The notes below the pieces were generated by a model. It searched no databases, was not told where the DNA came from, and worked only from the letters and a program-made list of their open reading frames with translations. Source: Candidatus Latescibacterota bacterium (lineage in GTDB: Bacteria; Latescibacterota; UBA2968; GCA-2709665). Taken from it: 64,000 nt of DNA. Below, piece by piece: positions 51,571 through 64,000 of the stretch. Location of the stretch: the NCBI GenBank assembly GCA_965219455.1, contig OZ244744.1, positions 3,360,001-3,424,000 on the forward strand, read 5' to 3'. Every line of letters starts with the position of its first letter. Position 1 is the first letter of the stretch. A program made the position numbers and the translations under genes.

Positions 51571-51753
51571 AATCACACGTCGCGGGCCGGGGAAGCCCGG
51601 TGGCGCGAATTTTGTTGCCAAAGGCAAGATGGGGCGGGATATTTCAGCCTGTACGTTCCAGCCGACGCGCTGCCCCGCCTGCCCGAATAATGACTGCGCT
51701 GGAAGACCATTGAATTCTGGTTGCAATTATTGACACCAAGACCGGAGGACCCG

Positions 51754-52986
51754 ATGAATCTCTTCTTGATCTTGCAGACTGTACTTATCGCCCTGCTCGT
51801 CCTGGCGTTCCTCGCCCTCCTGTTTGTCTCGGTCGCCGGGCTGAATATATCCGCGCTTCTGGGTCTATCCCAGAAATCCGAAGCAATTAAATTCCTCGGA
51901 ATCGGCGCTGCCGGTATCCTGGTTGCCCTGAACGCCCTGATGTCCTACAAGCGCGCCAGAGAAATGGAGCGGGTTGCGAAAGCGCAGGCCGACGCGGCGG
52001 GCGAGCAGGCGCGAGCCAGCCGCGACGCCGAACTGGGGCGGCGGCATGAACGCCTGCATAACGGCGTTGAACACCTTGGACACGACTCGGTGGCCGTGCG
52101 CCTGGGCGGAGCCTACGAACTCTTCCACCTTGCGCAGGATACCGAAGCGTTGCGCCAGCCGGTGCTGGACATTCTCTGCGCGCATATCCGCCGCACCACG
52201 GGGCAGGACACGTATCGGAGAAGGCACAGGTCGAAACCGTCCGAAGAAGTCCAGAGCCTGCTGAACCTGCTGTTCACCTCGCCACACGGGATCTGCAAGG
52301 GCCTACGCATCGATTTGCAGGGAAGCTGGTTGAATGGGGCCACGCTATGTGCCGCGTACCTGTGCGGCGCCAATCTTGCGGAGGCGAAGCTGCAAGGCGC
52401 GGATCTTGTCGGGGCGCAACTCCAGGGGACCGACATGTCCTGGGCGCACCTGCAGGTGGCCGGTCTTTCATGGGCGCGGCTGCAGGGCGCCGATCTTGTC
52501 GGCGCGCGGCTCGATGCCGCGAGCATTTCCAGGGCGAATCTTCAGGGGGCAGATCTTGCCCGTTCGATGTTGCGCGGCGCCGCACTTTCCCGAACGCATC
52601 TGCAAGGTGCTTTTATTGTTGGAGCGAATCTGCAGGGCGCGGACCTCACCGAGGCGCAGCTTCACGGCGTGAGGAGTTACGTGGATTACCCCGATTCCTT
52701 CGCCCAGCGCGTGACGCAGTCAATCGGGGAAGAGAGCGACTTGAGCGGGGCGATCTTCGCGGGCGGATTGACGCTGGAGGAAGTGGAGTCCGTTCTGGAT
52801 GGAATGTACCACGAAATGGCAACCGTGTTACGAGAAAAGTTGACGCCGCACATCGGCAAGAGGACGTCCTACGAACTTCCGGAACACAGCGGCGCGGTCA
52901 TCGGAACCTACACCGACGAAGAGGCCGAAAAATGGATCGCGGAATACGAGGAAGCCATGTCGGGGGTGGGAGAGGAAGACGGCTAA
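51754..52986 (+). CDS. Membrane-anchored pentapeptide-repeat protein
   Basis: GGAGG RBS; two N-terminal TMs, VRLGGAYEL...DILCAHIR segment, A(D/N)LxG pentapeptide repeats. Confidence 0.88.
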   Translation: MNLFLILQTVLIALLVLAFLALLFVSVAGLNISALLGLSQKSEAIKFLGIGAAGILVALNALMSYKRAREMERVAKAQADAAGEQARASRDAELGRRHERLHNGVEHLGHDSVAVRLGGAYELFHLAQDTEALRQPVLDILCAHIRRTTGQDTYRRRHRSKPSEEVQSLLNLLFTSPHGICKGLRIDLQGSWLNGATLCAAYLCGANLAEAKLQGADLVGAQLQGTDMSWAHLQVAGLSWARLQGADLVGARLDAASISRANLQGADLARSMLRGAALSRTHLQGAFIVGANLQGADLTEAQLHGVRSYVDYPDSFAQRVTQSIGEESDLSGAIFAGGLTLEEVESVLDGMYHEMATVLREKLTPHIGKRTSYELPEHSGAVIGTYTDEEAEKWIAEYEEAMSGVGEEDG

Positions 52987-53202
52987 GGCCGAAAACAGAC
53001 TGGTTGGCAGGCCGGAGGCGGTGTCGTCGCTGAACGAGCCTGACAGGGAGGTCGTTGGCTTCAGACGGACTCCTCATGTAGGGAGATTAGGCGGCTGCTC
53101 ACAACCGCGAACGCCTGGATGGATGAACGATGATTTGGCGTTGATTCAAATTTCTCGCCGGCAGCAACAGGTCGATAACAGGCAATTTTACCGAAAAACC
53201 AT

Positions 53203-53231
53203 TTGAATTACGTGCGGCAATGCCGCATATT
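53203..53231 (+). promoter_or_regulatory. higBA promoter with operator palindrome; probably leaderless
   Basis: TTGAAT-17nt-CATATT; perfect IR TGCGGCA-A-TGCCGCA at 53213-53227; ATG only 6 nt after the -10. Confidence 0.6.
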
Positions 53232-53237
53232 TATTTC

Positions 53238-53570
53238 ATGCGAATATTCGCAACCCGGACCTACGACCGGGCTATCCGCAGGTTGCTTTCAGATGAAAGC
53301 CGCATGGAGATGGAAGCTGCTATTGCAGCCGACCCCACGGGAGCGTCGGTCATTCCGGGTACCGGTGGCATTCGAAAGATGCGCTGGCGCGGGTTCGGGC
53401 GGGGCAAACGGGGCGGCATTCGGACCATTTACTTCCTTAACACAGAGTCAGTTGCCATCTATTTGTTAACAGCCTATGCAAAGGCTGCACGCAATGACCT
53501 GAGTCCGGCAGACAAGAAAGCGCTCAAGAGTCAGGTTGCAGCAATCAAGGAACAGGAGAAAGCACAATGA
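53238..53570 (+). CDS. higB: RelE/HigB2-family toxin
   Basis: IPGTGGIRKMRW, GKRGGIRTIYF, LLTAYAK; toxin-first order. Confidence 0.9.
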   Translation: MRIFATRTYDRAIRRLLSDESRMEMEAAIAADPTGASVIPGTGGIRKMRWRGFGRGKRGGIRTIYFLNTESVAIYLLTAYAKAARNDLSPADKKALKSQVAAIKEQEKAQ

Positions 53571-53872
53571 CCGTAGAACGAACTCAATTAGGCCAGGAAA
53601 TCGAGACCGCACTTGGGGAAGTACTCGCCCACGTGCGCGGCGAAATGGATCTTCCGTGCCGAATCGTGGATGACCCTACTGCGGAGAGGATTCGCGCCCT
53701 TCGCCACGGCATGAAGTTAAGCCGTGAGAAGTTCGCAAAGCGATTCGGTTTAGACGTGCGCGCAGTGCAGGATTGGGAACAAGGTCGTCGCGTTCCGGAT
53801 CGGGCAGCCCGCGTCCTGCTGACTGTCATCGACTGCGAACCGGAAGCTGTCGTTCGCGCGCTTGCCAGGTAA
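53567..53872 (+). CDS. higA: HigA-like XRE HTH antitoxin
   Basis: IRALRHGMKLSREKFA...VQDWEQGRRVP; ATGA overlap with toxin. Confidence 0.88.
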   Translation: MTVERTQLGQEIETALGEVLAHVRGEMDLPCRIVDDPTAERIRALRHGMKLSREKFAKRFGLDVRAVQDWEQGRRVPDRAARVLLTVIDCEPEAVVRALAR

Positions 53873-53970
53873 ACGTGTCAGCATAGAATTTCCGACTGCA
53901 TCCTACGGAATGTTTGATCCCGAATAAGATGTCTGAGCATTTGGACATCCTCGCCGGGAGATTGCTATCT

Positions 53971-54068
53971 ATGGGCAGCCTGCGAGGGCATATTGTTGAC
54001 GGCGCGACGGGCGAGCAGTCGCGCCGTCAACACTCGACCGTGAGGGCATCGTCTTCAAGCAGGCACCC
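53971..54068 (+). pseudogene. Orphan diverged copy 1 of the 5' end of the CehA/McbA-like gene
   Basis: atgggcagcctgcgagggcatattgttgacggcgcgacgggcgagcag aligns to 62014-62061; weak similarity resumes at ...ttcaagcaggcaccc. Confidence 0.8.
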
Positions 54069-54171
54069 TACGACGTGAAGACAAGGAACTAAGTGGGGAT
54101 CATGTGCTTGGGCGTGGTTCATAATCGTCGTCATACCGTCGAAAATATGAGAGCGTTCAAGCGGAGGCTTC

Positions 54172-55524
54172 ATGAACGATAGAAATACATGGCGCATCCG
54201 CGACCCGGTCCATGGGCTGATTGTGTTCGGGGATGGAAACGACAAAGCCCAAAATGAGACGGACCAGATCGCGTGGCGTTTGCTCAATACACCCGAGTTC
54301 CAACGCCTGCGCCGAATCCGTCATTTGGGTTTCTCCGACCTGGTATATCCCGGCGCGACACATAGCCGTTTTGCACACGCTGTCGGCGTCTATCACACTG
54401 CGCGTCGAATCGTTGACGTAATCAGACGCCGTCTAAAGAACCAGGAGTTTGACGAGAACAGAACAAGGGTGGCGCTGTTGGCCGCACTACTGCACGATAT
54501 CGGGCATGGGCCTTTGAGTCACGTCTTCGAACATGCGGCTCAGGCCACGGGCTTGAGTAAACGCCATGAGGATTGGAGTGCGGAGATCCTCCTGGGCGAT
54601 ACGGAGGTCAAGAGCATATTGCAAGAGGTGGACACGGTGCTGCCGGGGGACATCAGCGCGCTAATTAAGGAGGAAGAGCCGAAGGACATCTACGCCACCA
54701 TTGTCTCCAGTCAGTTCGACGCCGACCGGCTCGACTACCTGCAGCGGGATCGCCTGATGACTGGAGTCGAGTTCGCGCATCTCGATTGTAGCTGGTTGCT
54801 TGATTGCCTTGAGGCCGGACCGGTTACTATTGAAATGGATGGACCGGTCGAAGTGGAGTGTCTGTATCTCAATTTCAAGGGTGTGCAGGTCGCGGAGGAG
54901 TACTTGCAAGCCCGTTTCCGCCTCTACAAGGCGGTCTATATGCACAAGACTACGAGGGGCGCTGAGAAAATGTTCGAGGCTTTGCTGAGGATCTGCATGA
55001 AGGATCTAAGAGAGGATAAATGGGTGCAACAGGATCCAGTGTTGAATTTTTTTATGTCCGAATCGTCTTCGTTGAGTTCGTATCTCAAGCTCGACGATGC
55101 CTCAGTTTGGGCCACCGTGGCGGCTCTTGCTTCTTCATCTCAAACTAACATTGCTGAGTTGGCAAGCCGTCTGCGTGACCGACGGCTTTACAAGTGTTTC
55201 GATATCGGCATTCGGGACAAGCCACAGGGCGATCTGTACACTCGCTCCCGGCGTAAATTGAGAGCTGATTACAAGGAATATGACAGCCTTCTATTAGACG
55301 ACGCGGAGGTCGTGTTCTACAGATGGTACGATTTTGACGATTCGTCGGCACTCAATAAAGTTTTGGTGAAAACACGCGCCGAGGATCAAGAACCGAAGGA
55401 CATTGCCAATGTGTCCCCCATCGTCCCTGCGCTTCGTGACGCGGAGCGTATTCAGCGGGTTTACGCACCGGATCAAAGCCAGATAGAGGAAATCAGTCAG
55501 ATTTTGAAGGAGGTCAATCCATGA
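54172..55524 (+). CDS. HD-domain phosphohydrolase, YwfO/SAMHD1-like dNTP triphosphohydrolase family
   Basis: RDPVHG, FQRLRRIRHLG, YPGATHSRFAH, LLHDIGHGPLSH, DADRLDYLQRD, VYMHK; GGAGG RBS. Confidence 0.9.
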   Translation: MNDRNTWRIRDPVHGLIVFGDGNDKAQNETDQIAWRLLNTPEFQRLRRIRHLGFSDLVYPGATHSRFAHAVGVYHTARRIVDVIRRRLKNQEFDENRTRVALLAALLHDIGHGPLSHVFEHAAQATGLSKRHEDWSAEILLGDTEVKSILQEVDTVLPGDISALIKEEEPKDIYATIVSSQFDADRLDYLQRDRLMTGVEFAHLDCSWLLDCLEAGPVTIEMDGPVEVECLYLNFKGVQVAEEYLQARFRLYKAVYMHKTTRGAEKMFEALLRICMKDLREDKWVQQDPVLNFFMSESSSLSSYLKLDDASVWATVAALASSSQTNIAELASRLRDRRLYKCFDIGIRDKPQGDLYTRSRRKLRADYKEYDSLLLDDAEVVFYRWYDFDDSSALNKVLVKTRAEDQEPKDIANVSPIVPALRDAERIQRVYAPDQSQIEEISQILKEVNP

Positions 55525-56054
55525 ATGCCAGAGACGTCGTGGTCAATTTGGTTAAACTGAACGGACGGGAACTGAACGGCCAGACACGGCTGCAGAGAGA
55601 AGCCTACCTTCTGGATCGTTGCGGGGCGAAATTTGAGCTCTCGTTTGCGTATCACTATAGCGGTCCTTACTCCTTTGAGCTTGCCAATGGATGGGAGGAC
55701 GCAAAGGCCGAAGGTCGGATTGAAGTCGAGGAAAAGCTCGGCCGGTACGATGTCTCGTATTTGAGTTTTAAACAGAAAGAGTCTGATGACGATCCGGACA
55801 ACCTGGGTGAGCTGTCGGCTGCCGATGCCCGTGAACGATTACAGAAGATGGCGGAGGCATCGGATACCGTTTTGGAGCTCGCGGCTGCCATTGTCTATCT
55901 GAGGAGAGAGGGATACGCTGAACGGGCCATCGAAGAGTTGAAAATGCGCAAGCCTCTCAAAGCGACGGGTGGACGGATCGACAAAGCCAGGGCTCTGCTG
56001 CGCGACCTCGGCCTCGAAGAAGACGCCACGCTTTCAGACTCGCCGTTGTCATAA
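55521..56054 (+). CDS. YwgA-family protein
   Basis: GQTRLQREAYLL...F.YHYSGPYSFEL...LELAAAIVYL; AAGGAGG RBS, ATGA overlap with HD gene. Confidence 0.75.
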   Translation: MNARDVVVNLVKLNGRELNGQTRLQREAYLLDRCGAKFELSFAYHYSGPYSFELANGWEDAKAEGRIEVEEKLGRYDVSYLSFKQKESDDDPDNLGELSAADARERLQKMAEASDTVLELAAAIVYLRREGYAERAIEELKMRKPLKATGGRIDKARALLRDLGLEEDATLSDSPLS

Positions 56055-56076
56055 AGGGAGTTAACGGACCTGATCC

Positions 56077-56781
56077 ATGCAGCTGAAACGATATCAAGCC
56101 GACACGCTCTCCGTTCTGCGCCGATTTTTTGAGGAGGCGCGAGTCGCCGGACCCAAGAACGCCTACGAGGCGATAACAAGAGAACCGGAACAGGCCGGGC
56201 GGCTTGGGGGCTACGCCGGAGCTTATGTGCCGTTAATAGAATTGCCGGAGGTTCCCTACGTCTGCCTGCGCCTGCCCACCGGCGGGGGCAAGACGATCCT
56301 CGCCGCTCATGCCGTATCCGTTGTGCGCAATGCGTGGGTTGAGAAGGACTATCCACTGGTGCTTTGGCTGGTACCGACGAATACCATTCGGAGGCAGACG
56401 GTCGACGCGCTGAAAAGCCCCCGCCATGCTTATCGACAGGTGTTGGACGAGGCCTTTGAAGGTAGGGTGCGTATATTTGACATTGCGGATTTCACGCACA
56501 TCCGACCGCACGATATCCGCGATCAGTGCTGCATTGTTATTGGCACGATCCAGACGCTGAGGGTGAAGAGCACCGAGGGACGCAAGGTCTACGCGCACAA
56601 CGAGGAAATGGAACCGCATTTCTCTGCCGTGCGACGGACCTCAACGGGCCTGGAGATGTTGGAAAACGGGGCCGTAGCCGCCCGCGCCGCGTTGTCAAAA
56701 AAGGCGCGGGATGACGTCGAGTACATCCGTCCCATCGTTCTGTTTCAGGTACTGGTTCAGTGTCGAGGGGTGAGTTCCTGA
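56077..56781 (+). pseudogene. Truncated type III restriction (Res) DEAD/DEAH helicase subunit
   Basis: MQLKRYQ, CLRLPTGGGKT Walker A, LWLVP, TIQTL; no Walker B; jumps to YIRPIVLFQ then stops at 234 aa. Confidence 0.8.
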
Positions 56782-57083
56782 CCGGAGAGCGAGAGTGTGA
56801 CGAGAGAAGCAGTAGACGCCGGCGAGAATAGAAATCGGAGACATTAGTAGACGGTAGACTTTGGACTTGGAGGAATCGACAGGGAACAGGATCGGGTTAG
56901 GCCCTGTTCAGAATCTGTCAAAGCGGGCGGCGTGCCGTCGCAGAAATATCCATCCAGTCAGTGAAAGGAACTCTACCAGTCTGAGAATAACATATATGGC
57001 ACCCGGCCGCGTGGAACATTTTTTCGAATTTTTCTCTGGAAGCCTGTGGACTGGATCGACCCTCCTGAGGGCATCTTCGGCGT

Positions 57084-59933
57084 TTACTGAGGCGCGAGAT
57101 ATCGGTCTCCGTTGAAATGAATTAGATGGTCCGGTATTTCTGATAGCCAAACTTCCGTCTCCCATGCAATTTCGACGATGAAATTCTTGAATACCGTGAA
57201 GTCAGGAAACGCACTGACGTATACTCGCTTCGCAGTGCAAGTTTTGAACGTCTCCTCCAATTCGATATGGCGTTTTGGAGACACTGGACCGTGAGAAGTG
57301 ACGGCTTCAATTAAATACAGCCGGTTCCGCTTTTCTTCAAATAAAACTATATCTGGTAGCTTGTCGTGGCTTGGAATAGGTAAACCAAGCTCCTCGAAGG
57401 TCTCCTGATTTACAATCAACGCCTTATCCTCTGCATCGCCAAGGTAGAGAAGTTGGGCTCCCGGGGCGAATCGTGGTCCGAATTCCTCAACAACGGCAGC
57501 TTGTAATTCGTTGTGTGGACCGGGCGATAGATGAAACGCTTCGCCGCTTGGCAATTGCAAAGGCACCCGGTGCTGATCTCGACGTTTCTGATAAATCTCG
57601 AATAGTGAGCCCTTTGCTTCATTGAATGATGCAATCGCTTGTTGCCACATTTCGGTACGATACGCTATAATAGTCCGGATCGCGGATTCAGATAACGCAT
57701 AATGGGTGCGCGGACTGTTTGTCGGTAGGGTAGGGTCATCAGGGTTTCGAACGACAAGGCCTGCCTGTTCAAATTGATGAATGACCTGACGACGAATCGT
57801 CTCTCGGGTATTCTCCGCATATTCGCGATTGTATCTGTCCTTGATGTTTTCTAATATATCGTGTATGCGCAAACTATGGCATTTCGCGTCAGTCCAGGGC
57901 GTTTCTTCAGAAAGTTGTGCCAACACAAGCAATGTCAGAGCCGCTATTTCGTTTTGTTGTGCGGGAGGTAGACCTAAAGATTTCAATACCTCCTGAGCCT
58001 CCTGTATTTTTCCGTTCGCCATGCGGGTTTCCTTTATTGTCGGGAAATCTCTCGGAATACATCCAGTTTCTCTCAAGGTGGGAAAAACCAGGCGGTCTAT
58101 ATCCACGCCTGTTTCTGATATATCAGTTGACCGAACCTGTTCTCCAATTCGCCTGATGACTGTTCGAGGCGGAAGTGGCAATGCGCGTAATTCCATTGCG
58201 TTTACCTGGGTATTTCCATTTGAAATGCGGAAGTACCGATCCAATAGCGCACTGTTGAAGATAGCTGATAGTCCAAGCGTCTCCTCATCATCGAGTTCCT
58301 CGTTCTTTTTGTAAATGTAATTGAGATGATTCTCCAGCCCAATCCTTTTGTGTGTAAATTGGTCTCTCAGAAAGGGCGCGGCAATTAGACGACGCGGTTC
58401 TTCCTTTGCGCTAAACCTGCGAAGCAGGACGTAGTTGGAAACCGGAACGGACAGATCGTGAGTGGCTTCACCGAGACGGATGCTCTGCGGCTTGTTACCT
58501 TTCGTCGCCGGCCATTCAACTTTTCGGTGTCGGATGTTGCGCATCCATAGAAGCGGGATTGCTTCGTTCTGTTCAACTGCACCTTCATCCGCGAGATATT
58601 GTCGAGCGCGGAAGGCAACGACCGGACCTGTTGAGACTTCCAGACCGTATTCCTGCAACGTGGCTGGCCAGCTATCCACGATATCAATGACCTGTTCGTC
58701 AAATTCGCTCGTCGGTAATCTGAAGTTCAGCTTGTTCTTGTACTCCCGAATGAAATGCTTCATCGATACCATACGGGATTTTGTTTCGCCTAAATCCAGC
58801 GCATTTTTGGATGATGATATCTTAATAAATATAGGTTCGGGTAACTTCCTGTCCTGCAATCTTCGGTAAGTAATAATAACATTTTCCTGAAGGACAGAAT
58901 CTTTACTAAACGTCTCGTGGCGCGACTCAAATAAGTGAAGTGACAGAGGGAGCGTTTGGCTGATAAACTCCCGCCTGAATGAGGAAAAGTAAGCGCCGGA
59001 ACAGAAGCTTCGTGGGACGATAAAACATGCGCACCCCAGGGGCGCAAGCATTCTTGCTGAGAGTGCCATGAACAGGGTGTAGATATTCGAATGTCCTTTA
59101 ATTTGGCCGGCCACTGCTTTCACGCGAGGGTCGTCGCTATTGAGTTTGAAATAGGGTGGATTCGCGATAATCTTGTCGTATAGTAATCGTTTTCTCGGTT
59201 CACCGGTTTTGTCAGCTTCGAAGAGTGAAGGCTGAGAAGAAGGGATGCAATCGAAGATGAAATCGCGATTATGTACCTGTGCGTGAACCGTAATGCCCTT
59301 TTCTTGAGCACGTCTTGTTGCCTTTTCAAGTGCCTCGCGAGCTACTTCAACTAAGTCTTTGTCGATTTCATATCCGTCGATCCATAGCTCTATTGGGCGT
59401 CCTTCAATTATGGTGCGCTCAATAAGGGCACATGCGAGAACGCCGGAACCAATGGATGGATCGAGCAACCGTTCCCCGTTTCGCACCGGTCCGAGTTGCC
59501 TGGCCATAAAACGGCCGACCAGATCGGGCGTAAGGAATTGTCCGTTTCGCTTTCGGTATGCTTCAGGCCTTTCTGATAGCGTGTTTTCGCCCATCTTAAG
59601 ACTGAAATCTACTAAGTCCGGCAAACCATAGGGTGCGACCGTCTCTGCAACGGACATGGTAGATACACGATGCAGGACGGATGTGGCATATTCAGGATCC
59701 TTTCTTATAAACGCCTTCATCGCTTTCGTTAGCCTACCCGAACGAAGCAACAGTTCGTCAGGATCGCATTCCAAAACCCGGGTCAGCCGTACGATTAACG
59801 ATTCAGATGGCAGGATTTTTCCTGCCTCGATTCGTGAGAAGTGAGCAGGATCAACTCCTACAGCAGATGAGAGTGAACGTAAGCTTATATTATTCTTCAT
59901 TCTAAGCGAACGCATGTATTCGCCAAATTCCAT
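57084..59933 (-). CDS. Fused XRE-HTH + N6-adenine methyltransferase (Eco57I-type) + BsuBI/PstI-family restriction endonuclease
   Basis: N-terminal HTH (SLRSLSSAVGVDPAHFSRIEAG); GQFLTP, LDPSIGSG, IANPPY, GNTQVNA; from M638 KIQEAQEVLKSLGLP, YAENTRETIRRQ, PD...IEAVTSHGP, IAWETEVW, HLIHFNG. Confidence 0.92.
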   Translation of the reverse strand: MEFGEYMRSLRMKNNISLRSLSSAVGVDPAHFSRIEAGKILPSESLIVRLTRVLECDPDELLLRSGRLTKAMKAFIRKDPEYATSVLHRVSTMSVAETVAPYGLPDLVDFSLKMGENTLSERPEAYRKRNGQFLTPDLVGRFMARQLGPVRNGERLLDPSIGSGVLACALIERTIIEGRPIELWIDGYEIDKDLVEVAREALEKATRRAQEKGITVHAQVHNRDFIFDCIPSSQPSLFEADKTGEPRKRLLYDKIIANPPYFKLNSDDPRVKAVAGQIKGHSNIYTLFMALSARMLAPLGCACFIVPRSFCSGAYFSSFRREFISQTLPLSLHLFESRHETFSKDSVLQENVIITYRRLQDRKLPEPIFIKISSSKNALDLGETKSRMVSMKHFIREYKNKLNFRLPTSEFDEQVIDIVDSWPATLQEYGLEVSTGPVVAFRARQYLADEGAVEQNEAIPLLWMRNIRHRKVEWPATKGNKPQSIRLGEATHDLSVPVSNYVLLRRFSAKEEPRRLIAAPFLRDQFTHKRIGLENHLNYIYKKNEELDDEETLGLSAIFNSALLDRYFRISNGNTQVNAMELRALPLPPRTVIRRIGEQVRSTDISETGVDIDRLVFPTLRETGCIPRDFPTIKETRMANGKIQEAQEVLKSLGLPPAQQNEIAALTLLVLAQLSEETPWTDAKCHSLRIHDILENIKDRYNREYAENTRETIRRQVIHQFEQAGLVVRNPDDPTLPTNSPRTHYALSESAIRTIIAYRTEMWQQAIASFNEAKGSLFEIYQKRRDQHRVPLQLPSGEAFHLSPGPHNELQAAVVEEFGPRFAPGAQLLYLGDAEDKALIVNQETFEELGLPIPSHDKLPDIVLFEEKRNRLYLIEAVTSHGPVSPKRHIELEETFKTCTAKRVYVSAFPDFTVFKNFIVEIAWETEVWLSEIPDHLIHFNGDRYLAPQ

Positions 59934-59993
59934 TTTTTCCCTTCGTTAATAAAATTCGCACCGAAATATGATTTATTCGTCACGGCCTCTGCT

Positions 59994-60026
59994 AATATAT
60001 TCGCCGTTGATCGATTTGTCAACGGC
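59994..60026 (-). promoter_or_regulatory. Sigma70 promoter of the fused R-M gene overlapped by a palindromic operator
   Basis: Minus strand TTGACA-17nt-TATATT; perfect IR GCCGTTGA-8nt-TCAACGGC at 60003-60026. Confidence 0.75.
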
Positions 60027-60214
60027 ATATGTACGGTTCGTTCGGATATTAGGCCGCCTTGAAACTTAGCTTGAAAAATCGGATTTGTTCGAGTTTCTTG
60101 AATTGGAATATGTATGTATATTTCAAGCCAAGTGTGGTCTATTCCACAACTTGAACCGCCCCTCTCACCAAGTAGTCATTCCGAACGTGTGCGCACAGCC
60201 GCCCGGGGTTCTTT

Positions 60215-60331
60215 ATGGTCATCTTGCGAGGGCCTATTGTTGACGGCGGGGCGGGCGAGCAGATCGACGCCAGGACCCACGTCCTGACATCCGATGGCCG
60301 TCTTACGCATCCACGCGAGACCATGCTCAAG
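60215..60331 (+). pseudogene. Orphan diverged copy 2 of the 5' end (39 codons) of the CehA/McbA-like gene
   Basis: MVILRGPIVDGGAGEQIDARTHVLTSDGRLTHPRETMLK vs MGILRGHIIDGATGEQISAKVHVLSSDGRFTHPREAVLK (27/39 identical by hand count); upstream cccggggttctttATG vs cccggagttctctATG. Confidence 0.9.
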
Positions 60332-60358
60332 GAATACCTCGTCCACAATCTTGAAAAG

Positions 60359-60383
60359 GTGGAGCAGACATTCCTGTCTGCTC
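60359..60383 (+). repeat. REP-like palindrome (GTGG type)
   Basis: GTG-GAGCAGACA-TTCC-TGTCTGCTC perfect 9-bp stem. Confidence 0.65.
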
Positions 60384-60607
60384 AAAGACATCAAATCGAA
60401 ACATCAGAATCCTGCGTCCGGGCACGCCGCGAATCGCCGCCATCTTCCCAAACTCACGGGCGCTTCCGGGACTTTCCGGCTCGATAAGCCACAGTGCGGG
60501 GATGGCGTTGATTGATTCGCGAAAAAAGCAGCCAACGGTGACGATTTATGTATTAATCAGGCTGGTAAGCCGATGGGTCCACATTCAGCGAATGAACGAG
60601 GTGTCCG

Positions 60608-61771
60608 ATGAAAAAACGCTATACGTTTCATTTTACCCTCTCGTTTGTTTGTGTCCTGTTGGTGCAGAACAGCGTCGCTCAAGACAATAACCCCGTCAGT
60701 TTTCCCGAAGGCGGCACTACACTGCGTGGGCATGCGGGGGGTGTATTATCCGTGTCGTTTTCGCCGGACGGAAGGACCTTGGCCAGCGGGAGTATCGACG
60801 CGACGATTCGGTTGTGGGATGTGTCCAGCGGCCGGGAGAGGGCCATACTCACCGGGCATACGTGGCGGGTCCGTTCCGTTGCGTTCTCACCGGATGGGAG
60901 AACCCTGGCCAGTGGGAGCTATGACGCTACGGTTCGATTGTGGGACGTGGAAAGCGGTCTGGAGAAGATCAGGTTCACGGCGCATACGTGGCATGTCAAT
61001 TCCGTCGCGTTCTCGCCGAATGGGAGTACTCTCGCCAGTGGGAGTTCTGACCTTCGACTGTGGGATGTGTCCAGCGGACAGGAGAAGGCGGCGCTTCAGG
61101 GTAATATGTGGCCTGCTTTCTGCTTGTCGTTCTCGCCGGACGGCAGAATTCTCATCGGTTACATGGTTGACATCATCTTGTGGGACGTGGCCAGCGGTCT
61201 GCAGAAGGCGAGATGGCATGCGCCCAGTGGCAGATCCATCAGTTCGTTGTCGTTCTCGCCGGACGGGGGCACTCTCGCAAGCGGGGGCCATGATGCTACG
61301 GTTCGATTGTGGGATGTGGAAAGCGGCCAACAAAAAGCCACGTTCCGAAGGTATTCGGGTGCTATACTTTCCGTGTCGTTCTCACCGGATGGGAGTATTC
61401 TCGCCAGCGGAGGTGAAGACCATACGGTTCGATTGTGGGACGTGGAAAGCGGTCAGGAGAAGGCTACATTGCAAGGGCATTTGGCGCCTGTCCGTACCGT
61501 TCAGTTCTCGCAGAACGGGAGGATTCTGGCCAGTGGGAGTGACGACGCCACGATTCTGCTGTGGGATATGTCACCGTACATTACACCACAAACCGCCAAT
61601 GCGGACTTCGATGGCAATGGCACCGTTGACTTCGCCGACTTTTTGGAGTTTGCCGCGAGCTTCGGGTTGAATCACGGCGATGCGGGGTATGATACGGCGT
61701 TTGATCTGGACGGGGATGGCGCCATTGGATTCGGCGATTTTCTGATCTTTGCCAGGGCCTTCGGCGGTTAG
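60608..61771 (+). CDS. Secreted WD40-repeat protein with C-terminal EF-hand/dockerin-like domain
   Basis: Signal peptide; seven FSPDGxxLASG...RLWDV repeats; DFDGNGTVDFADF and DLDGDGAIGFGDF Ca-binding loops. Confidence 0.92.
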   Translation: MKKRYTFHFTLSFVCVLLVQNSVAQDNNPVSFPEGGTTLRGHAGGVLSVSFSPDGRTLASGSIDATIRLWDVSSGRERAILTGHTWRVRSVAFSPDGRTLASGSYDATVRLWDVESGLEKIRFTAHTWHVNSVAFSPNGSTLASGSSDLRLWDVSSGQEKAALQGNMWPAFCLSFSPDGRILIGYMVDIILWDVASGLQKARWHAPSGRSISSLSFSPDGGTLASGGHDATVRLWDVESGQQKATFRRYSGAILSVSFSPDGSILASGGEDHTVRLWDVESGQEKATLQGHLAPVRTVQFSQNGRILASGSDDATILLWDMSPYITPQTANADFDGNGTVDFADFLEFAASFGLNHGDAGYDTAFDLDGDGAIGFGDFLIFARAFGG

Positions 61772-62013
61772 GCGGGCATGCGGGAAACAAACTCAACCAG
61801 GTACGCATTTCTCGGCGGACGACGGCTGCATCGCAATTTTCGCGAAGACAATTGACTCCATTTGTGTGCGAATTGCTTGAAGGGGAGGAAATCCGTCATA
61901 CGTCAATACGGAAGTTTGGCCTATCTTGTCTCGTGACGTAACCATCCGGCGTATCGCCTGACACGAGAAAAATCACTCTGAGATCAACCACATACCACCA
62001 CCCGGAGTTCTCT

Positions 62014-63471
62014 ATGGGCATCTTGCGAGGGCATATAATCGACGGCGCGACCGGCGAGCAGATCAGCGCCAAGGTTCACGTCCTGTCGTCGGACGGACGT
62101 TTTACACACCCACGCGAGGCCGTGCTCAAGCGGGGCCCCGGCACGCCGTTTTTCTTCAGCGACGGAATGTTCGAGGTTCGCGGCGGTCGTGGACGCACCG
62201 ACGTTCTGGTGGAGCGCGGTACGGAATACGAGCCCCTGCGGACGGTGGTGGACATGCCCGAACACGGCAGCAGAGACGTCGAAATTACGCTCAACCGATG
62301 GTACGTACCGCAGGAAAACAACTGGTATCCGGGCAACACCCACATTCACTACGACGAAAAGGAAACGCGCCCCGACGACCGGCTGGCCATCGACTGCAGC
62401 GTGGAAGGCTACAACGTAACCGTAGTCAGCGTTCTGGACAGAAGACAACTTCCGTACGCCAGCAACAAATATCCCATTGGTGTGATGAACGAGTTCACCA
62501 CCGCGCATCACGTTCTGGACATCGGCGAAGAGAACCGCCACTACGGCGAGAACTCGCCCTGGGGTTTCGGATATGGACACGTAATGTTTCTCAACATCCG
62601 CAACCTGGTCCAGCCCGTCAGCCGCGGCCACATCCTCACCGCGCAGTTCGACCCGGACTATCCACCCCTGTGCTTCTGTTGCGACGAAGCCCGCGACCAG
62701 GGCGGCATTGTCATCTGGTGCCACAACGGCCGCGGGATGGAGGCCCCGGTTGCCGCGGTGCTGGGGAAACTGGACGCCTTCAATCTCTTCGATCCCTTCT
62801 GGATGGACCCCGAGTACGATCTCTGGTACAAGCTGCTCAATTGCGGTATCGCCCTCCCCGCATCCACCGGCACGGATTGGTTCGTCTGCTCAAACAACCG
62901 CGTGTACGTGAACACCAGTGACACGTTCTCCTACGAAAACTGGATCGCCGGCATGAAGGCGGGCAATACCTTCATCACCAATGGTCCCGCCATCGATCTG
63001 AGCGTCAACGATCAGCCGATGGGATCAACGGTTCAATTGCCCAGCGGGGGATCGCTCGATATCGAATCCAGGTTCACCTCCTTCTATCCCGTTCACCGCG
63101 CGGAAATCGTGATGAACGGCCGCGTGATTCACAGCGAGGGCGATGCCGAAGGCAAACGCGAAGGCGCCATCCGTCACCGGGTGGAGGTCGACCGCGATGG
63201 CTGGATCGCCGCGCGGCTTTGGGGCGACAGGCGCGACAGCTTCGACCAGTCCATCTACGCCCACAGCAGCCCGGTTTATTTTTCGTGCGGACGCCCTCCC
63301 GCCGAAAGGGACGAATCCGCCCGTTATTTCCTGAACGGAATCGAGGATTCGCTGAAGTGGATCGACACGTGGGGCCGTTACAACACCGACCGGCAGCGCG
63401 ACGACGTCAGGGAGCTCTTCCGCCGCGGGAGAGAAGGCTTCGCGGGGCTGGTAAGGGAAAGATCAAAATGA
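62014..63471 (+). CDS. CehA/McbA-family (PHP-like) metallohydrolase
   Basis: ERGTEY, WYPGNTHIH, WCH, WYKLLNCG..ASTGTD, FITNGP, AHSSPVY. Confidence 0.85.
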   Translation: MGILRGHIIDGATGEQISAKVHVLSSDGRFTHPREAVLKRGPGTPFFFSDGMFEVRGGRGRTDVLVERGTEYEPLRTVVDMPEHGSRDVEITLNRWYVPQENNWYPGNTHIHYDEKETRPDDRLAIDCSVEGYNVTVVSVLDRRQLPYASNKYPIGVMNEFTTAHHVLDIGEENRHYGENSPWGFGYGHVMFLNIRNLVQPVSRGHILTAQFDPDYPPLCFCCDEARDQGGIVIWCHNGRGMEAPVAAVLGKLDAFNLFDPFWMDPEYDLWYKLLNCGIALPASTGTDWFVCSNNRVYVNTSDTFSYENWIAGMKAGNTFITNGPAIDLSVNDQPMGSTVQLPSGGSLDIESRFTSFYPVHRAEIVMNGRVIHSEGDAEGKREGAIRHRVEVDRDGWIAARLWGDRRDSFDQSIYAHSSPVYFSCGRPPAERDESARYFLNGIEDSLKWIDTWGRYNTDRQRDDVRELFRRGREGFAGLVRERSK

Positions 63472-63689
63472 ACTGTATCCACTGTCGTGGGAAGATGCAA
63501 CGCTCGAAAGCGCCTTTCCACGTTGACCGCAACGGGTATCACCTTGTACTCGACACAGTCCCTGCCAGGGTCTGCGACCAATGCGGTGAGGCATACTTCG
63601 AGGAGCGCGAGGTCAATGCGATTCAGGCCGCTATTACGGGGCTCGACAACCGGCTCAACAGGTTGTTGGAGACAGTTGAGACCGATTGA
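63468..63689 (+). CDS. YgiT/MqsA-type zinc-finger protein (orphan antitoxin-like)
   Basis: MNCIHCRGKM...VPARVCDQCGEAYF; ATG 63468 overlaps the upstream TGA. Confidence 0.85.
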   Translation: MNCIHCRGKMQRSKAPFHVDRNGYHLVLDTVPARVCDQCGEAYFEEREVNAIQAAITGLDNRLNRLLETVETD

Positions 63690-63780
63690 AAGGGGGCTGT
63701 GGCAAATGGTCGTCCCAGCCCCTGTTTCCAACGATTTTACCTTTAGACCGTGGATTCAATCTATACTTCCCGAATGTAGG

Positions 63781-63882
63781 GCGACCGAAGTCGTCTCCAT
63801 TCTCACCAACGACAAACGCCGGGCCATCCACGACTTTATCGCGGGAACGGTCGTCGTCCGGACAAATCTCGAAGAACCGTAG
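63781..63882 (+). pseudogene. RDD-family C-terminal remnant
   Basis: EVVSILTNDKRRAIHDFIAGTVVVRT is the RDD C-terminal signature; no N-terminal part present. Confidence 0.65.
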
Positions 63883-64000
63883 GAGGACCGATCACTCGAA
63901 TCGTGAAATCTATCGCGAAATTGAAGCGCGGCCCATTGTGTCATGACAGCATAAGGGTTGCGCTTGCTTTTTGCCTTCTCGCTATCGCCCCTGGGATCCA

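Follow-up and report, generated by a model that had tools for sequence, protein, structure and literature searches.

Orphan C-terminal modules of Rhs/CDI systems were reportedly described by Jackson in 2009 and Poole in 2011, and experiments on homology-facilitated illegitimate recombination (HFIR) are said to be those of de Vries and Wackernagel in 2002, Prudhomme in 2002 and Meier and Wackernagel in 2003. In these modules, as among the orphan T6SS immunity genes of Vibrio cholerae, a conserved segment is the homology anchor beside which new modules are placed, older ones being kept as truncated orphans in a layered array devoid of integrase; sequential displacement of the HFIR type was proposed for them (PMC5361080). 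HFIR itself has reportedly been demonstrated by experiment in Acinetobacter, Streptococcus pneumoniae and Pseudomonas stutzeri, as well as in E. coli conjugation (PMC3240628). Hotspots without mobile elements, where turnover proceeds via recombination in flanking core genes, were also described (PMC5635113), and the core defence hotspots of Pseudomonas (PMC10250203) and the defence-island repertoire of E. coli (PMC10121019) are reportedly comparable. Islands associated with dusA 'characteristically' replace the 5' end of this gene and leave a remnant 5' end (PMC4482086).

The locus presented here lies in a window of 64,000 nucleotides (the whole stretch of DNA analysed) from a Candidatus Latescibacterota bacterium. 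It resembles the T6SS and Rhs/CDI arrays in its anchor, its layered truncated orphans and the lack of an integrase. Yet, the anchor of those arrays is a constant 5' part with 3' ends displaced downstream, whereas here it is the gene body, with 5' ends displaced upstream. In addition, the present orphans are non-functional scraps of 16-39 codons instead of useful immunity genes and the cargo (R-M, HD/Panacea-like, WD40) has no functional tie to the anchor gene. Like the core-gene hotspots (PMC5635113), it occupies a fixed spot between conserved genes, with variable defence-rich content, empty sites, phylogenetic incongruence of the flanking core genes and no integrase. The mechanism proposed for those hotspots is double homologous recombination in both flanks, which leaves no scars, whereas one side appears to have been repeatedly resolved illegitimately here, leaving datable scars (orphan starts, truncated mod and res). 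Insertion at a gene 5' end, an insert-supplied 5' end, a remnant left behind and R-M cargo are shared with the dusA-associated islands (PMC4482086). One homologous anchor, one illegitimate end and replacement of the resident DNA between them are shared with experimental HFIR, except that they are here read from old scars in uncultured organisms. The features of the locus are as follows (window coordinates, strand, description).

53220-53570, + strand: RelE-family toxin gene (Pfam PF06296, E 6.2e-11)
53567-53872, + strand: HTH antitoxin gene (HTH_31/HTH_3/MqsA_antitoxin)
53968..54018, + strand: orphan copy 1 of the CehA 5' end, 3 nt before the ATG and codons 1-16 (51-nt repeat family, 86-88%; E 9.2e-12 genome-wide)
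54010..54018, + strand: junction J1, 9-nt microhomology GGCGAGCAG, occurring in codons 14-16 of CehA and also in the 3' part of a type III mod gene (aligned with mod 3' ends of L040, L043 and L045)
54019..54092, + strand: remnant, last ~80 nt of the type III mod (N6_N4 methylase) gene, stop at 54090-54092 (alignment with relatives)
54172-55524, + strand: HD-domain protein (PF01966 and PF19276 for this gene and the next as a pair)
55521-56054, + strand: 177-aa Panacea/DarG-C-terminal-like protein (weak DarG C-terminal matches, PADLOC 5.2e-7, NCBIfam 5.2e-4)
56077..56781, + strand: N-terminal remnant of a type III res gene, res-derived sequence stopping at ~56749 (PADLOC REase_III E 1.3e-38, PF04851)
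56743..56749, + strand: junction J3, TTTCAGG, between the res remnant and the left flank of the type II R-M block (three-way alignments)
57084..59933, - strand: fused HTH, N6-adenine methyltransferase and BsuBI/PstI-type endonuclease (type II R-M), 949 aa (PF06616, PF17728, PF07669, HTH_31)
60199..60331, + strand: orphan copy 2 of the CehA 5' end, 16 nt before the ATG and codons 1-39 (133 nt, 80% to 61998-62130; E 1.2e-27)
60325..60331, + strand: junction J2, 7-nt microhomology GCTCAAG, where codons 37-39 of CehA meet a dispersed repeat (aligned with genome copies of the repeat)
60332..60577, + strand: remnant of the dispersed palindromic (MITE/REP-like) repeat, internally deleted, with a 26-nt hairpin core at 60358-60383 (alignment with genome copies)
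60608..61771, + strand: WD40 beta-propeller protein, 387 aa (PF00400, E 8.3e-72)
61998..62130, + strand: repeated segment at the intact gene, 16 nt upstream and codons 1-39 (repeat search, genome-wide search)
62014..63471, + strand: intact CehA/McbA-family metallohydrolase gene, 485 aa, conserved anchor of the locus (NCBIfam NF038032, E 3.9e-49, residues 103-423)

The initial annotation had recognized the start of CehA three times in direct orientation, and both the repeat search and the genome-wide search bore this out. The copies form a 133-nt pair with 80% identity (60199-60331 versus 61998-62130) and a 51-nt family with 86-88% identity (53968-54018, 60212-60262 and 62011-62061). Throughout the 5,844,228-bp genome, this 5' end occurred in three places only (E 2.2e-64 for itself, 1.2e-27 and 9.2e-12), the next best among the 28 matches listed being at E 0.10, so that a dispersed genome-wide repeat is ruled out. 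Domain and profile searches also agreed with the gene content initially described for the blocks between the copies. A CehA homologue was present in 56 of 61 related genomes (E<=1e-30), including 14/14 of the genus, where amino acid identities were 90-97% except for the broken copy of G001. The cassettes (~53000-62000) displayed a GC content of 0.46-0.56 versus 0.60-0.66 in the flanks, and the RelE/HTH pair is the outermost layer of this low-GC variable region.

Orphan copy 1 was identical at 45/48 positions to the intact starts of L044, L046 and L048, versus 42/48 for the intact start of the window. Beyond codon 16 its likeness to CehA was no better than that of shuffles (observed score reached by 302/500), and homology of the window to all relatives with the HD block began at 54010-54022. 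The similarity of all copies had been proposed to end near the same (C/T)TCAAG at codons 38-39; copy 1 ends at 54018, in codon 16, and the TTCAAG at 54054-54059 is not a CehA endpoint since 54019-54092 is the 3' end of mod. The latter gene is full-length in relatives (Pfam PF01555, PADLOC MTase_III E 2e-87); a 7-nt CGCTTGA absent from the window remnant occurs both in relatives and in contigs from runs X1 and X7.

Orphan copy 2 shared 27/39 amino acids (69.2%) with the intact start, exactly as previously counted, and the similarity did reach into the sequence before the ATG (~16 nt, ribosome-binding region). It was collinear up to 60331 with the R-M-to-CehA arrangement of L054, and the same orphan with an identical end was found in L039. 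Its tail after 60331 was unlike CehA (observed score reached by 129/500 shuffles). The palindromic repeat that follows gave >60 blastn matches across the genome, its 23-nt core having 22 + 22 occurrences on the two strands (<=2 mismatches). The dN/dS comparison suggested initially gave 0.40 for copy 2 versus the intact start, and a further one gave 0.96 between the orphans of the window and G013, above the 0.08-0.16 of live 5' ends, which for noisy values from 39 codons would be consistent with orphans evolving as dead DNA. The dS of copy 2 versus the intact start (~0.45) fell inside the between-species range of 0.36-1.1. Both orphans carry ATTGTTGAC where the intact window gene carries ATAATCGAC, a difference correctly seen before; yet, ATTGTTGAC is no mark of orphans because other species in the genus commonly have it in their intact genes (L046, L048, L049 and L050).

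At J3, parental-type sequences read TTCCRGG, the shared motif being TTYCRGG; res extends beyond the join in L040, L045 and L054 and the R-M flank does so in L046, and the join itself is common to the window and L043. The res remnant covers only positions 3-183 of the 898-position REase_III profile, the rest being kept in L040 as a 729-aa ORF (profile positions 210-895). J1, J2 and J3 are all short microhomologies, each linking resident-type sequence to its left with cassette-type sequence, unrelated to the former, to its right, as read against 'parental' sequences that are orthologues or paralogues rather than true parents. The HD gene and the 177-aa gene, whose product gave an Atlas lead to SocA_Panacea clusters (score 0.91), lie between mod and res in relatives (order mod-HD-177aa-res in L040, L043, L045 and L054). 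Both parts of the fused R-M protein were recognized by PADLOC (MTase_II 1.3e-171, REase_II 8e-106). The WD40 gene holds internal 120-126-nt repeats and has 0-3 tandem paralogues in relatives (46-73% amino acid identity).

Among 16 loci from Latescibacterota MAGs of the same family, the stretch from the MacB/pentapeptide genes to CehA ranged from empty to >9 kb, its cargo comprising type III R-M with HD and Panacea-like genes, fused type II R-M and 1-3 WD40 genes. Empty sites occurred in G010 and G014 (~286 nt from the pentapeptide gene to CehA), and in G019 MacB is separated from CehA by ~91 nt. Both variable cargo and empty sites, expected from the initial annotation, were therefore encountered, and gene content is not fixed among relatives. 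Intermediate forms were also recorded. In G001 (L054) the fused R-M gene lies directly upstream of CehA and is collinear with window positions 57080-60331 (R-M gene, spacer and copy 2 to codon 39), with 79.9% identity over 3261 nt. G011 (L040) displays the order WD40, orphan codons 1-23, IS remnants, mod, HD, 177-aa gene, res (reaching its 3' end, apparently frame-shifted) and new CehA start; its orphan is 69/69 identical to its own intact start, with a different upstream spacer. The tail of the L040 orphan resembled shuffles (424/500 reaching the score) and that of L043 was real (0/500). The R-M-to-WD40 junction of L041 and L046 lies ~165 nt upstream of the ATG position, with no orphan left.

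Orphan endpoints differed across the window and its relatives (codons 16, 23, 39 and ~55-66). The end of copy 2 common to the window and G013 represents one inherited event, since its flanks are collinear in both (89.7%). Orphans were restricted to four closely related genomes, and the 3/80 loci with orphans in a wider survey all came from the same relatives, so that CehA is no general target. The HD block was 95.6% identical between the window and G011, versus 88.9% for the flanking MacB and 91.1% for the 3' part of CehA. MacB of G003 grouped with G011 (support 1.00) and its CehA with G007 (support 0.97-0.996), the first 300 nt of this CehA being 95% identical to G007 versus 84% to G011. Recombination across the locus is evident from such comparisons.

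Recombinases were searched for in the window genome (PF00589) and in the five richest relatives. The window genome contained five PF00589 matches, the nearest ~577 kb from the locus, in agreement with the initial remark that no integrase is in view. None of the 18 PF00589 matches in G013, G011, G003, G009 and G001 fell at the locus, which leaves it devoid of tyrosine recombinase in all six genomes, and the serine recombinase profile PF00239 had no match in the five relatives; the linked recombinase that relatives might have carried was not encountered at the locus in these genomes. Mobility genes detected with Pfam among 20 otherwise unassigned ORFs of the relatives' loci were IS remnants only (rve, DDE_Tnp_1_4).

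The reading of the orphans as displaced former 5' ends, and of the cassettes between them as stacked layers, was supported by these data. We consider it probable that the locus grew through a series of imports, each anchored in CehA by homology and sealed on its left side by an illegitimate microhomology join; homology-assisted recombination, an alternative in the initial annotation, was the part of it favoured by the evidence. Donor DNA from relatives carrying 'cargo plus CehA' would enter next to CehA. Its right end would be resolved by homologous recombination inside the gene, and its left end would be joined illegitimately where a few bases of microhomology allow, in the manner of HFIR. 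The left join would truncate whatever stood there, twice the resident CehA start (orphans of 16 and 39 codons) and once the type III res gene. Each import would supply its own CehA start and upstream spacer while pushing older layers outwards, and the hydrolase gene would therefore stay intact. From the outside inwards, the putative layers would be the RelE/HTH pair (layer 1), orphan 1 followed by the remnant of mod, the HD gene, the Panacea-like gene and what is left of res (layer 2), the fused type II R-M gene with orphan 2 (layer 3), and the repeat remnant with the WD40 gene (layer 4).

Three direct copies within 8 kb, at a locus where WD40 and pentapeptide genes also show tandem paralogues, might suggest that the CehA start was duplicated locally in tandem, through unequal crossing-over or slippage, and then decayed, with cassettes inserting independently between the copies. 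This is hardly credible, since the same upstream DNA would be expected before both copies, whereas the former neighbours retained by the orphans all differ (copy 2 has R-M and its spacer, as in G001, the G011 orphan has WD40 and copy 1 has the HTH gene); both the proximity of copy 1 to intact alleles of other species and the between-species dS of copy 2 also argue against it. The model proposed initially, in which dusA-like islands hit one site in the CehA 5' end and deliver surrogate starts, their integrase being lost or acting in trans and their att cores eroded, seems improbable as well. Displaced 5' ends, an insert-supplied start and defence cargo do recall dusA islands (PMC4482086), and copy 2 ends identically in two genomes, but inheritance of one event accounts for that shared end. 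The four orphan endpoints and one junction outside the gene, the location of joints in unrelated DNA (mod gene, dispersed repeat, res gene), the lack of recombinases at the locus and the narrow distribution of orphans are all contrary to an element with one crossover site. Moreover, a linked tyrosine integrase, two semi-conserved 21-bp att repeats at one position, demonstrated excision and presence in >200 bacteria distinguish the dusA islands (PMC4482086), and none of these was found here.

Less improbable, albeit still unlikely, is Campbell-type duplicative integration without dedicated recombinase, where a circular or concatemeric cassette with a CehA 5' segment would enter through one RecA-dependent crossover within the CehA start, duplicating this segment. 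Microhomology deletions would then trim the outer copy, and repeat-flanked cassettes could loop out and, needing nothing but homology, insert again in relatives. Orphan and intact starts are indeed direct repeats (117-133 nt, 80%) with signs of exchange, as seen in the G011 orphan and in the 5' half of the G013 orphan, which resembles intact alleles. The G001 arrangement is the expected product of deletion between such repeats, and microhomology joints suit secondary deletions equally well. However, this scheme takes two steps per layer versus one for HFIR, and J3, which lies in res without duplicated segment, is left unexplained. No circular or deletion joint between 60199-60331 and 61998-62130 was present among the joints listed for four runs (all but 26), a weak test on assembled contigs.

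Some observations also weigh against serial imports closed by microhomology. All layers are old, as the same J2 occurs in G013 and the same J3 in G003, and no event was caught in the act. Cassette divergence (~80-90% identity) is close to that of core genes, so that much of the variation between species may reflect differential loss from a cassette-rich ancestor instead of repeated gain. Short endpoints could result from secondary trimming of once-longer orphans and, for this reason, their differences do not strictly exclude an ancient common crossover. The arrangement of G001 need not be ancestral, as a deletion between its orphan and intact repeats could have produced it, and the identity of the G011 orphan to its own start, next to a different spacer, calls for gene conversion or a within-lineage donor. 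The dS of the first 300 nt of CehA was only slightly above the rest (median 0.70 versus 0.58, 105 pairs), and co-import of the 5' end thus leaves no strong genus-wide signal. To our knowledge, transformation has not been demonstrated in this phylum; ComEC and DprA homologues are present, as they are in most control genomes.

The orphans, the three junctions, the variable content, the intermediate forms and the lack of recombinases are direct observations; we infer the direction and mechanism of each event, which may have taken one step (HFIR) or two (duplicative integration, then microhomology deletion). In one genus of uncultured Latescibacterota, the region upstream of CehA is probably an integrase-free hotspot for accessory and defence genes. 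The orphan starts are scars of successive insertions in this variable hotspot, for which ordinary recombination is most likely responsible, rather than a mobile island of some novel type.

The analyzed stretch corresponds to G000:C1:3360001-3424000 of a genome assembled as a single contig of 5.84 Mb and, to our knowledge, the phylum of this genome is known only from metagenomes. The CehA/McbA-family metallohydrolase gene (CehA) and the genes preceding it are organized as follows (window coordinates).

49039-51570, + strand: MacB/FtsX permease
51721-52986, + strand: pentapeptide-repeat protein
53220-53872, + strand: RelE + HTH pair
54172-55524, + strand: HD-domain protein
55521-56054, + strand: 177-aa protein
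56077-56781, + strand: fragment of a type III restriction-modification (R-M) res gene
57084-59933, - strand: HTH-methyltransferase-BsuBI/PstI endonuclease fusion, 949 aa (R-M)
60608-61771, + strand: WD40 protein
62014-63471, + strand: CehA (NF038032, E 3.9e-49)

GC content was 0.60-0.66 until about position 53000, 0.46-0.56 across the cassettes and about 0.59-0.61 again in CehA.

The start of CehA occurs three times in direct orientation, as the initial annotation had noticed, and this feature is real. Copy 2 (60199-60331) and the intact start (61998-62130) aligned over 133 nt with 80% identity, and a 51-nt core is common to all three copies (beginning at 53968, 60212 and 62011; 86-88%). The count of 27 identical residues out of 39 between copy 2 and the intact start was reproduced, as was the likeness ahead of the ATG, where about 16 nt comprising the ribosome-binding region are common to the copies. 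CehA starts and WD40 repeats were the only repeats in 52000-64000. A genome-wide search with the CehA start gave significant matches at these three places only (E 1.2e-27 for copy 2 and 9.2e-12 for copy 1, the next among the 28 matches listed having E 0.10), so that a dispersed repeat, one of the explanations which could have overturned the initial reading, is ruled out for this fragment. The variant ATTGTTGAC, put forward as a sign of common origin of the two displaced starts (hereafter orphans), was rejected as such a marker because intact genes of other species carry the same allele. Orphan 2 retains its ATG and ribosome-binding region, and a predicted 90-codon ORF (60215-60487) runs from it in frame through the repeat remnant that follows.

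Microhomology was observed at three joins. Alignment with relatives carrying the HD block (HD and 177-aa genes) placed the end of CehA-like sequence in copy 1 at 54018. From 54010 on, the window matched the 3' end of a type III mod gene, which is full-length in three relatives' loci (L040, L043 and L045), and the nine bases GGCGAGCAG (54010-54018) are common to both parents, CehA and mod. The (C/T)TCAAG motif at which all copies had been thought to cross over did not fulfil that role, since the TTCAAG of copy 1 falls within the mod remnant, past the CehA-like part; likewise, 302 of 500 shuffles of the copy 1 tail reached the observed CehA-likeness score. Copy 2 ends at 60331 and is followed by 246 nt that derive from a dispersed palindromic repeat, in a copy with an internal deletion; CehA codons 37-39 and longer copies of this repeat both contain the 7-nt GCTCAAG (60325-60331). 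At the third join (56743-56749), res is fused at TTTCAGG, a microhomology of about 5-7 nt, to the block of the type II R-M gene on its left flank, leaving a res fragment that covers PADLOC profile positions 3-183 of 898; beyond this join, each of the two parental-type sequences goes on differently in relatives. The resident genes truncated at these joints are CehA starts, mod and res.

Nine public sequencing runs contained part of the stretch, and the contigs of four were examined. A contig of run X7 (53625-54360) spans the copy 1 junction, and runs X1 and X7 both have a 7-nt CGCTTGA that is absent from the window after 54021, which indicates that the junction is no artefact and exists in further samples as well. 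None of the 15 joints listed, all from assembled contigs, from which rare forms are dropped, connected about 60331 with 62130, or 54018-54060 with 60331. One contig of run X4 joined 54073 to 56068 through 13 nucleotides of other sequence, and looks like a mod-res form devoid of the HD and 177-aa genes. This pair is flanked by the mod and res genes of a type III system in five genomes (the window, L040, L043, L045 and L054), and the 177-aa protein (55521-56054) is Panacea/DarG-C-terminal-like. The two genes may form a module inside the type III system, acting either as toxin-antitoxin or in accessory defence; PADLOC did not match them to any system as a whole, and its hits to dGTPase and DarG were weak.

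The palindromic repeat remnant after copy 2 (60332-60577, core 60358-60383) belongs to a family for which blastn gave over 60 matches in the window genome. Its core is GGTGGAGCAGACATTCCTGTCTGCTC; with up to 2 mismatches allowed, the 23-nt core was counted 22+22 times, and with up to 4, 48+29 times. Fuller copies (e.g. G000:C1:3440056-3440454, 5664651-5665124 and 1698129-1698542) are about 400-450 nt long and display a hairpin inverted at both ends, enclosing a decayed short ORF that may resemble the N-terminus of REP-associated (RAYT)/IS200-like Y1 transposases. A Y1/HUH transposase was rejected as a partner of the repeat, the two PF01797 matches of the genome sitting elsewhere than on repeat copies, and a 147-aa ORF beside two full copies matched no Pfam family.

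Close relatives were metagenome-assembled genomes labelled Candidatus Latescibacterota, a few being labelled Gemmatimonadota. CehA was found in 56 of 61 related genomes and in 14/14 within the genus, where it displayed 90-97% amino acid identity (the broken copy of G001 excepted) and always borders a variable stretch. CehA and about 18.5 kb upstream were compared in 16 genomes of the same family, one of them (L042, from G005) too short for judging content, and in four of the same order, whose loci had no upstream genes in common with the window. The comparison proposed by the initial annotation revealed both variable cargo and empty sites.

Gene content upstream of CehA in related genomes
G010, G014: MacB/pentapeptide-to-CehA stretch empty, spacer of about 286 nt
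G019: empty, pentapeptide gene also absent, about 91 nt
G008, G006: one WD40 gene
G002: two WD40 genes
G012, G004: R-M and WD40 gene(s)
G013: R-M, orphan, repeat remnant, about three WD40 genes or gene pieces
G003: mod remnant, HD, 177-aa gene, res remnant, R-M, orphan, two WD40 genes
G011: WD40, orphan, IS remnants, mod, HD, 177-aa gene, res to its 3' end (apparently frame-shifted)
G009: IS-disrupted mod, HD, 177-aa gene, res remnant, other genes, two WD40 genes
G001: kinase and TPR genes, mod, HD, 177-aa gene, res remnant, R-M

Simpler forms thus comprise empty sites (G010, G014, G019), WD40 only (G008, G006), a type III block beside CehA (G011) and R-M beside CehA (G001). In G001 (locus L054), the R-M gene is directly 5' of CehA and homology with the window is unbroken over 57080-60331, i.e. 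up to the end of copy 2; since both are collinear up to that point, copy 2 is a CehA start that formerly belonged with the R-M block. In G011 (locus L040), the upstream neighbour of the orphan is a WD40 gene, as for the intact CehA of the window (window 61370-62083 versus L040 8507-9211). Both arrangements, R-M-CehA in the former and WD40, orphan and new block in the latter, support an insert that supplies a replacement 5' end and strands the old one; with these intermediates, the initial view of stacked layers with stranded gene starts proved right. Its other half, an island with one fixed crossover, was not upheld, as endpoints differ between orphans. These lie at codons 16, 23, 39 and about 55-66, with one further junction about 165 nt upstream of the ATG. 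The G011 orphan ends at codon 23 with a tail unlike CehA (424/500 shuffles); the G003 orphan is the one reaching about codon 55-66, its tail being significant (0/500 shuffles) and followed by the WD40 upstream region; the junction 5' of the ATG position joins R-M to WD40 in G012 and G004, where there is no orphan. Orphans occurred in the window, G013, G011 and G003 only, and a wider survey recovered the same three relatives (3/80 loci). A donor of the DNA following the G011 orphan, sought in 31 genomes, was found in G011 itself only.

Further variation surrounds the gene. The match to the G001 CehA (G001:C13:185436-186747) is split into residues 1-208 and 242-481, which lie in different frames, and the gene may therefore be broken in this genome. 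The WD40 genes upstream of CehA number 0 to 3 tandem paralogues with amino acid identities of only 46-73%. A second variable spot, between MacB and the pentapeptide gene, was seen in G011 and in loci L041 and L046; it holds an IrrE-like HTH/M78 peptidase gene and a 171-aa gene in both G011 and G012, together with a CBASS-like SMODS + S_4TM pair in G011. Pentapeptide genes themselves are present in 1-3 diverged copies. DNA downstream of CehA (G000:C1:3423469-3435468 and its counterparts) is indel-rich in the genus, five 13.4-kb stretches giving a 24.6-kb alignment, and CehA may therefore lie between two variable regions.

The absence of an integrase from the window was confirmed, the nearest of the five PF00589 matches in the genome being about 577 kb off. 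A recombinase linked to the locus in relatives, which the initial annotation had suggested looking for, was found neither with PF00589 nor with PF00239: the former gave 18 matches in G013, G011, G003, G009 and G001, 0 of them at the locus (the nearest, a 19-bit fragment in G009, is about 46 kb away), and the latter none in the 5 genomes searched. Pfam searches of window ORFs and of 20 otherwise unexplained ORFs from the G011, G009 and G001 loci did not find a tyrosine integrase either. Families recognized among these 20 ORFs point to roles in defence, in toxin-antitoxin systems and in regulation (SMODS with S_4TM, IrrE-like, DUF4258, kinase, TPR and methylases), the only mobility genes among them being IS remnants in 2 relatives.

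Signs of recombination were observed along the locus. The HD block is 95.6% identical between window and G011, as against 88.9% for MacB and 91.1% for the 3' part of CehA; in G003, MacB groups with G011, and CehA with several kb downstream is closer to G007. Between window and G013, CehA is a mosaic of blocks of 80-100%, and the spacer just 5' of it is 98-99% identical whereas WD40 genes are at about 65%, which places recombination breakpoints in or near the WD40 3' end. The G011 orphan is identical to its own intact start (69/69) and the first half of the G013 orphan resembles intact alleles; these likenesses suggest gene conversion between orphan and intact CehA copies. To judge from dN/dS, calculated on 39 codons only, the orphans drift neutrally: it was 0.96 between window and G013 orphans and 0.08-0.16 among live 5' ends; for copy 2 versus the intact start, the comparison advised initially, it was 0.40, again on 39 codons. 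The first 100 codons of CehA (62014-62313, before the NF038032 domain) are more diverged in the genus than the rest (62314-63453), with median dN of 0.068 versus 0.045 and median dS of 0.70 versus 0.58 (105 pairs); the dS excess, sought as a sign of co-imported starts, is slight. ComEC and DprA are present, which is uninformative since most control genomes also carry both.

The simplest account of these sequences is serial import, with homology in CehA anchoring one end of each import and the other end being closed illegitimately, either by homology-facilitated illegitimate recombination or by duplicative integration and a later deletion at microhomology. Every import would carry its own CehA start and spacer into the locus, so that the gene would survive and older layers would shift outwards. 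This account is preferred because it covers the three microhomology joints, the scattered endpoints, the truncated residents, the intermediates and the absent recombinases. Four hallmarks of arrays built by homology-facilitated illegitimate recombination were encountered, namely a conserved anchor beside the array, microhomology joints truncating residents, simpler forms elsewhere, and import signs such as incongruence or cassettes more alike than flanks. Several points weigh against the account: all events at the locus are old, secondary trimming may have affected orphan ends, and cassette divergence tracks core-gene divergence, so that differential loss may be behind much of the between-species patchiness.

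The dusA-like island proposed initially shares with the locus the insert-supplied 5' end and its stranded predecessor. Yet, according to PMC4482086, dusA islands carry an integrase linked to them, and their 21-bp att repeats lie at a single site; here, no tyrosine integrase was linked in the window genome or five relatives, and scattered orphan ends replace an att core repeated at one fixed target position. An integron (IntI/attI, attC-bounded cassettes) was not recognized either, PF00589 being absent at the locus. Variable content between core genes without integrases or self-mobile elements corresponds to the integrase-free hotspots described in PMC5635113. For T6SS effector-immunity arrays and for Rhs/CDI orphans, sequential displacement was put forward in PMC5361080, and serial import at the CehA locus would be its mirror image. 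We consider it improbable that orphan starts are portable homology arms as well as scars, forming an integrase-free cassette system driven by host recombination. RecA would then loop out a cassette lying between two diverged CehA starts, and one crossover would suffice for its entry into the CehA start of any relative, the 5' end of the target gene itself acting as att site; if true, this would explain the orphan/intact exchange and the patchy identical cassette blocks among species.

The locus contains no new class of mobile element, and a known type of process is encountered here in an uncultured phylum. It provides a readable record of how an integrase-free defence hotspot grew, in three dated layers that can each be told by a separate junction sequence. 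Displaced gene ends look like att scars of integrative islands, and comparison of endpoints across relatives separates the two. Orphan gene starts can be used for detecting such imports in genome scans, and the layers suggest that defence genes come to lie next to core genes not only by double crossovers in both flanks but also by imports that homology anchors on one side.
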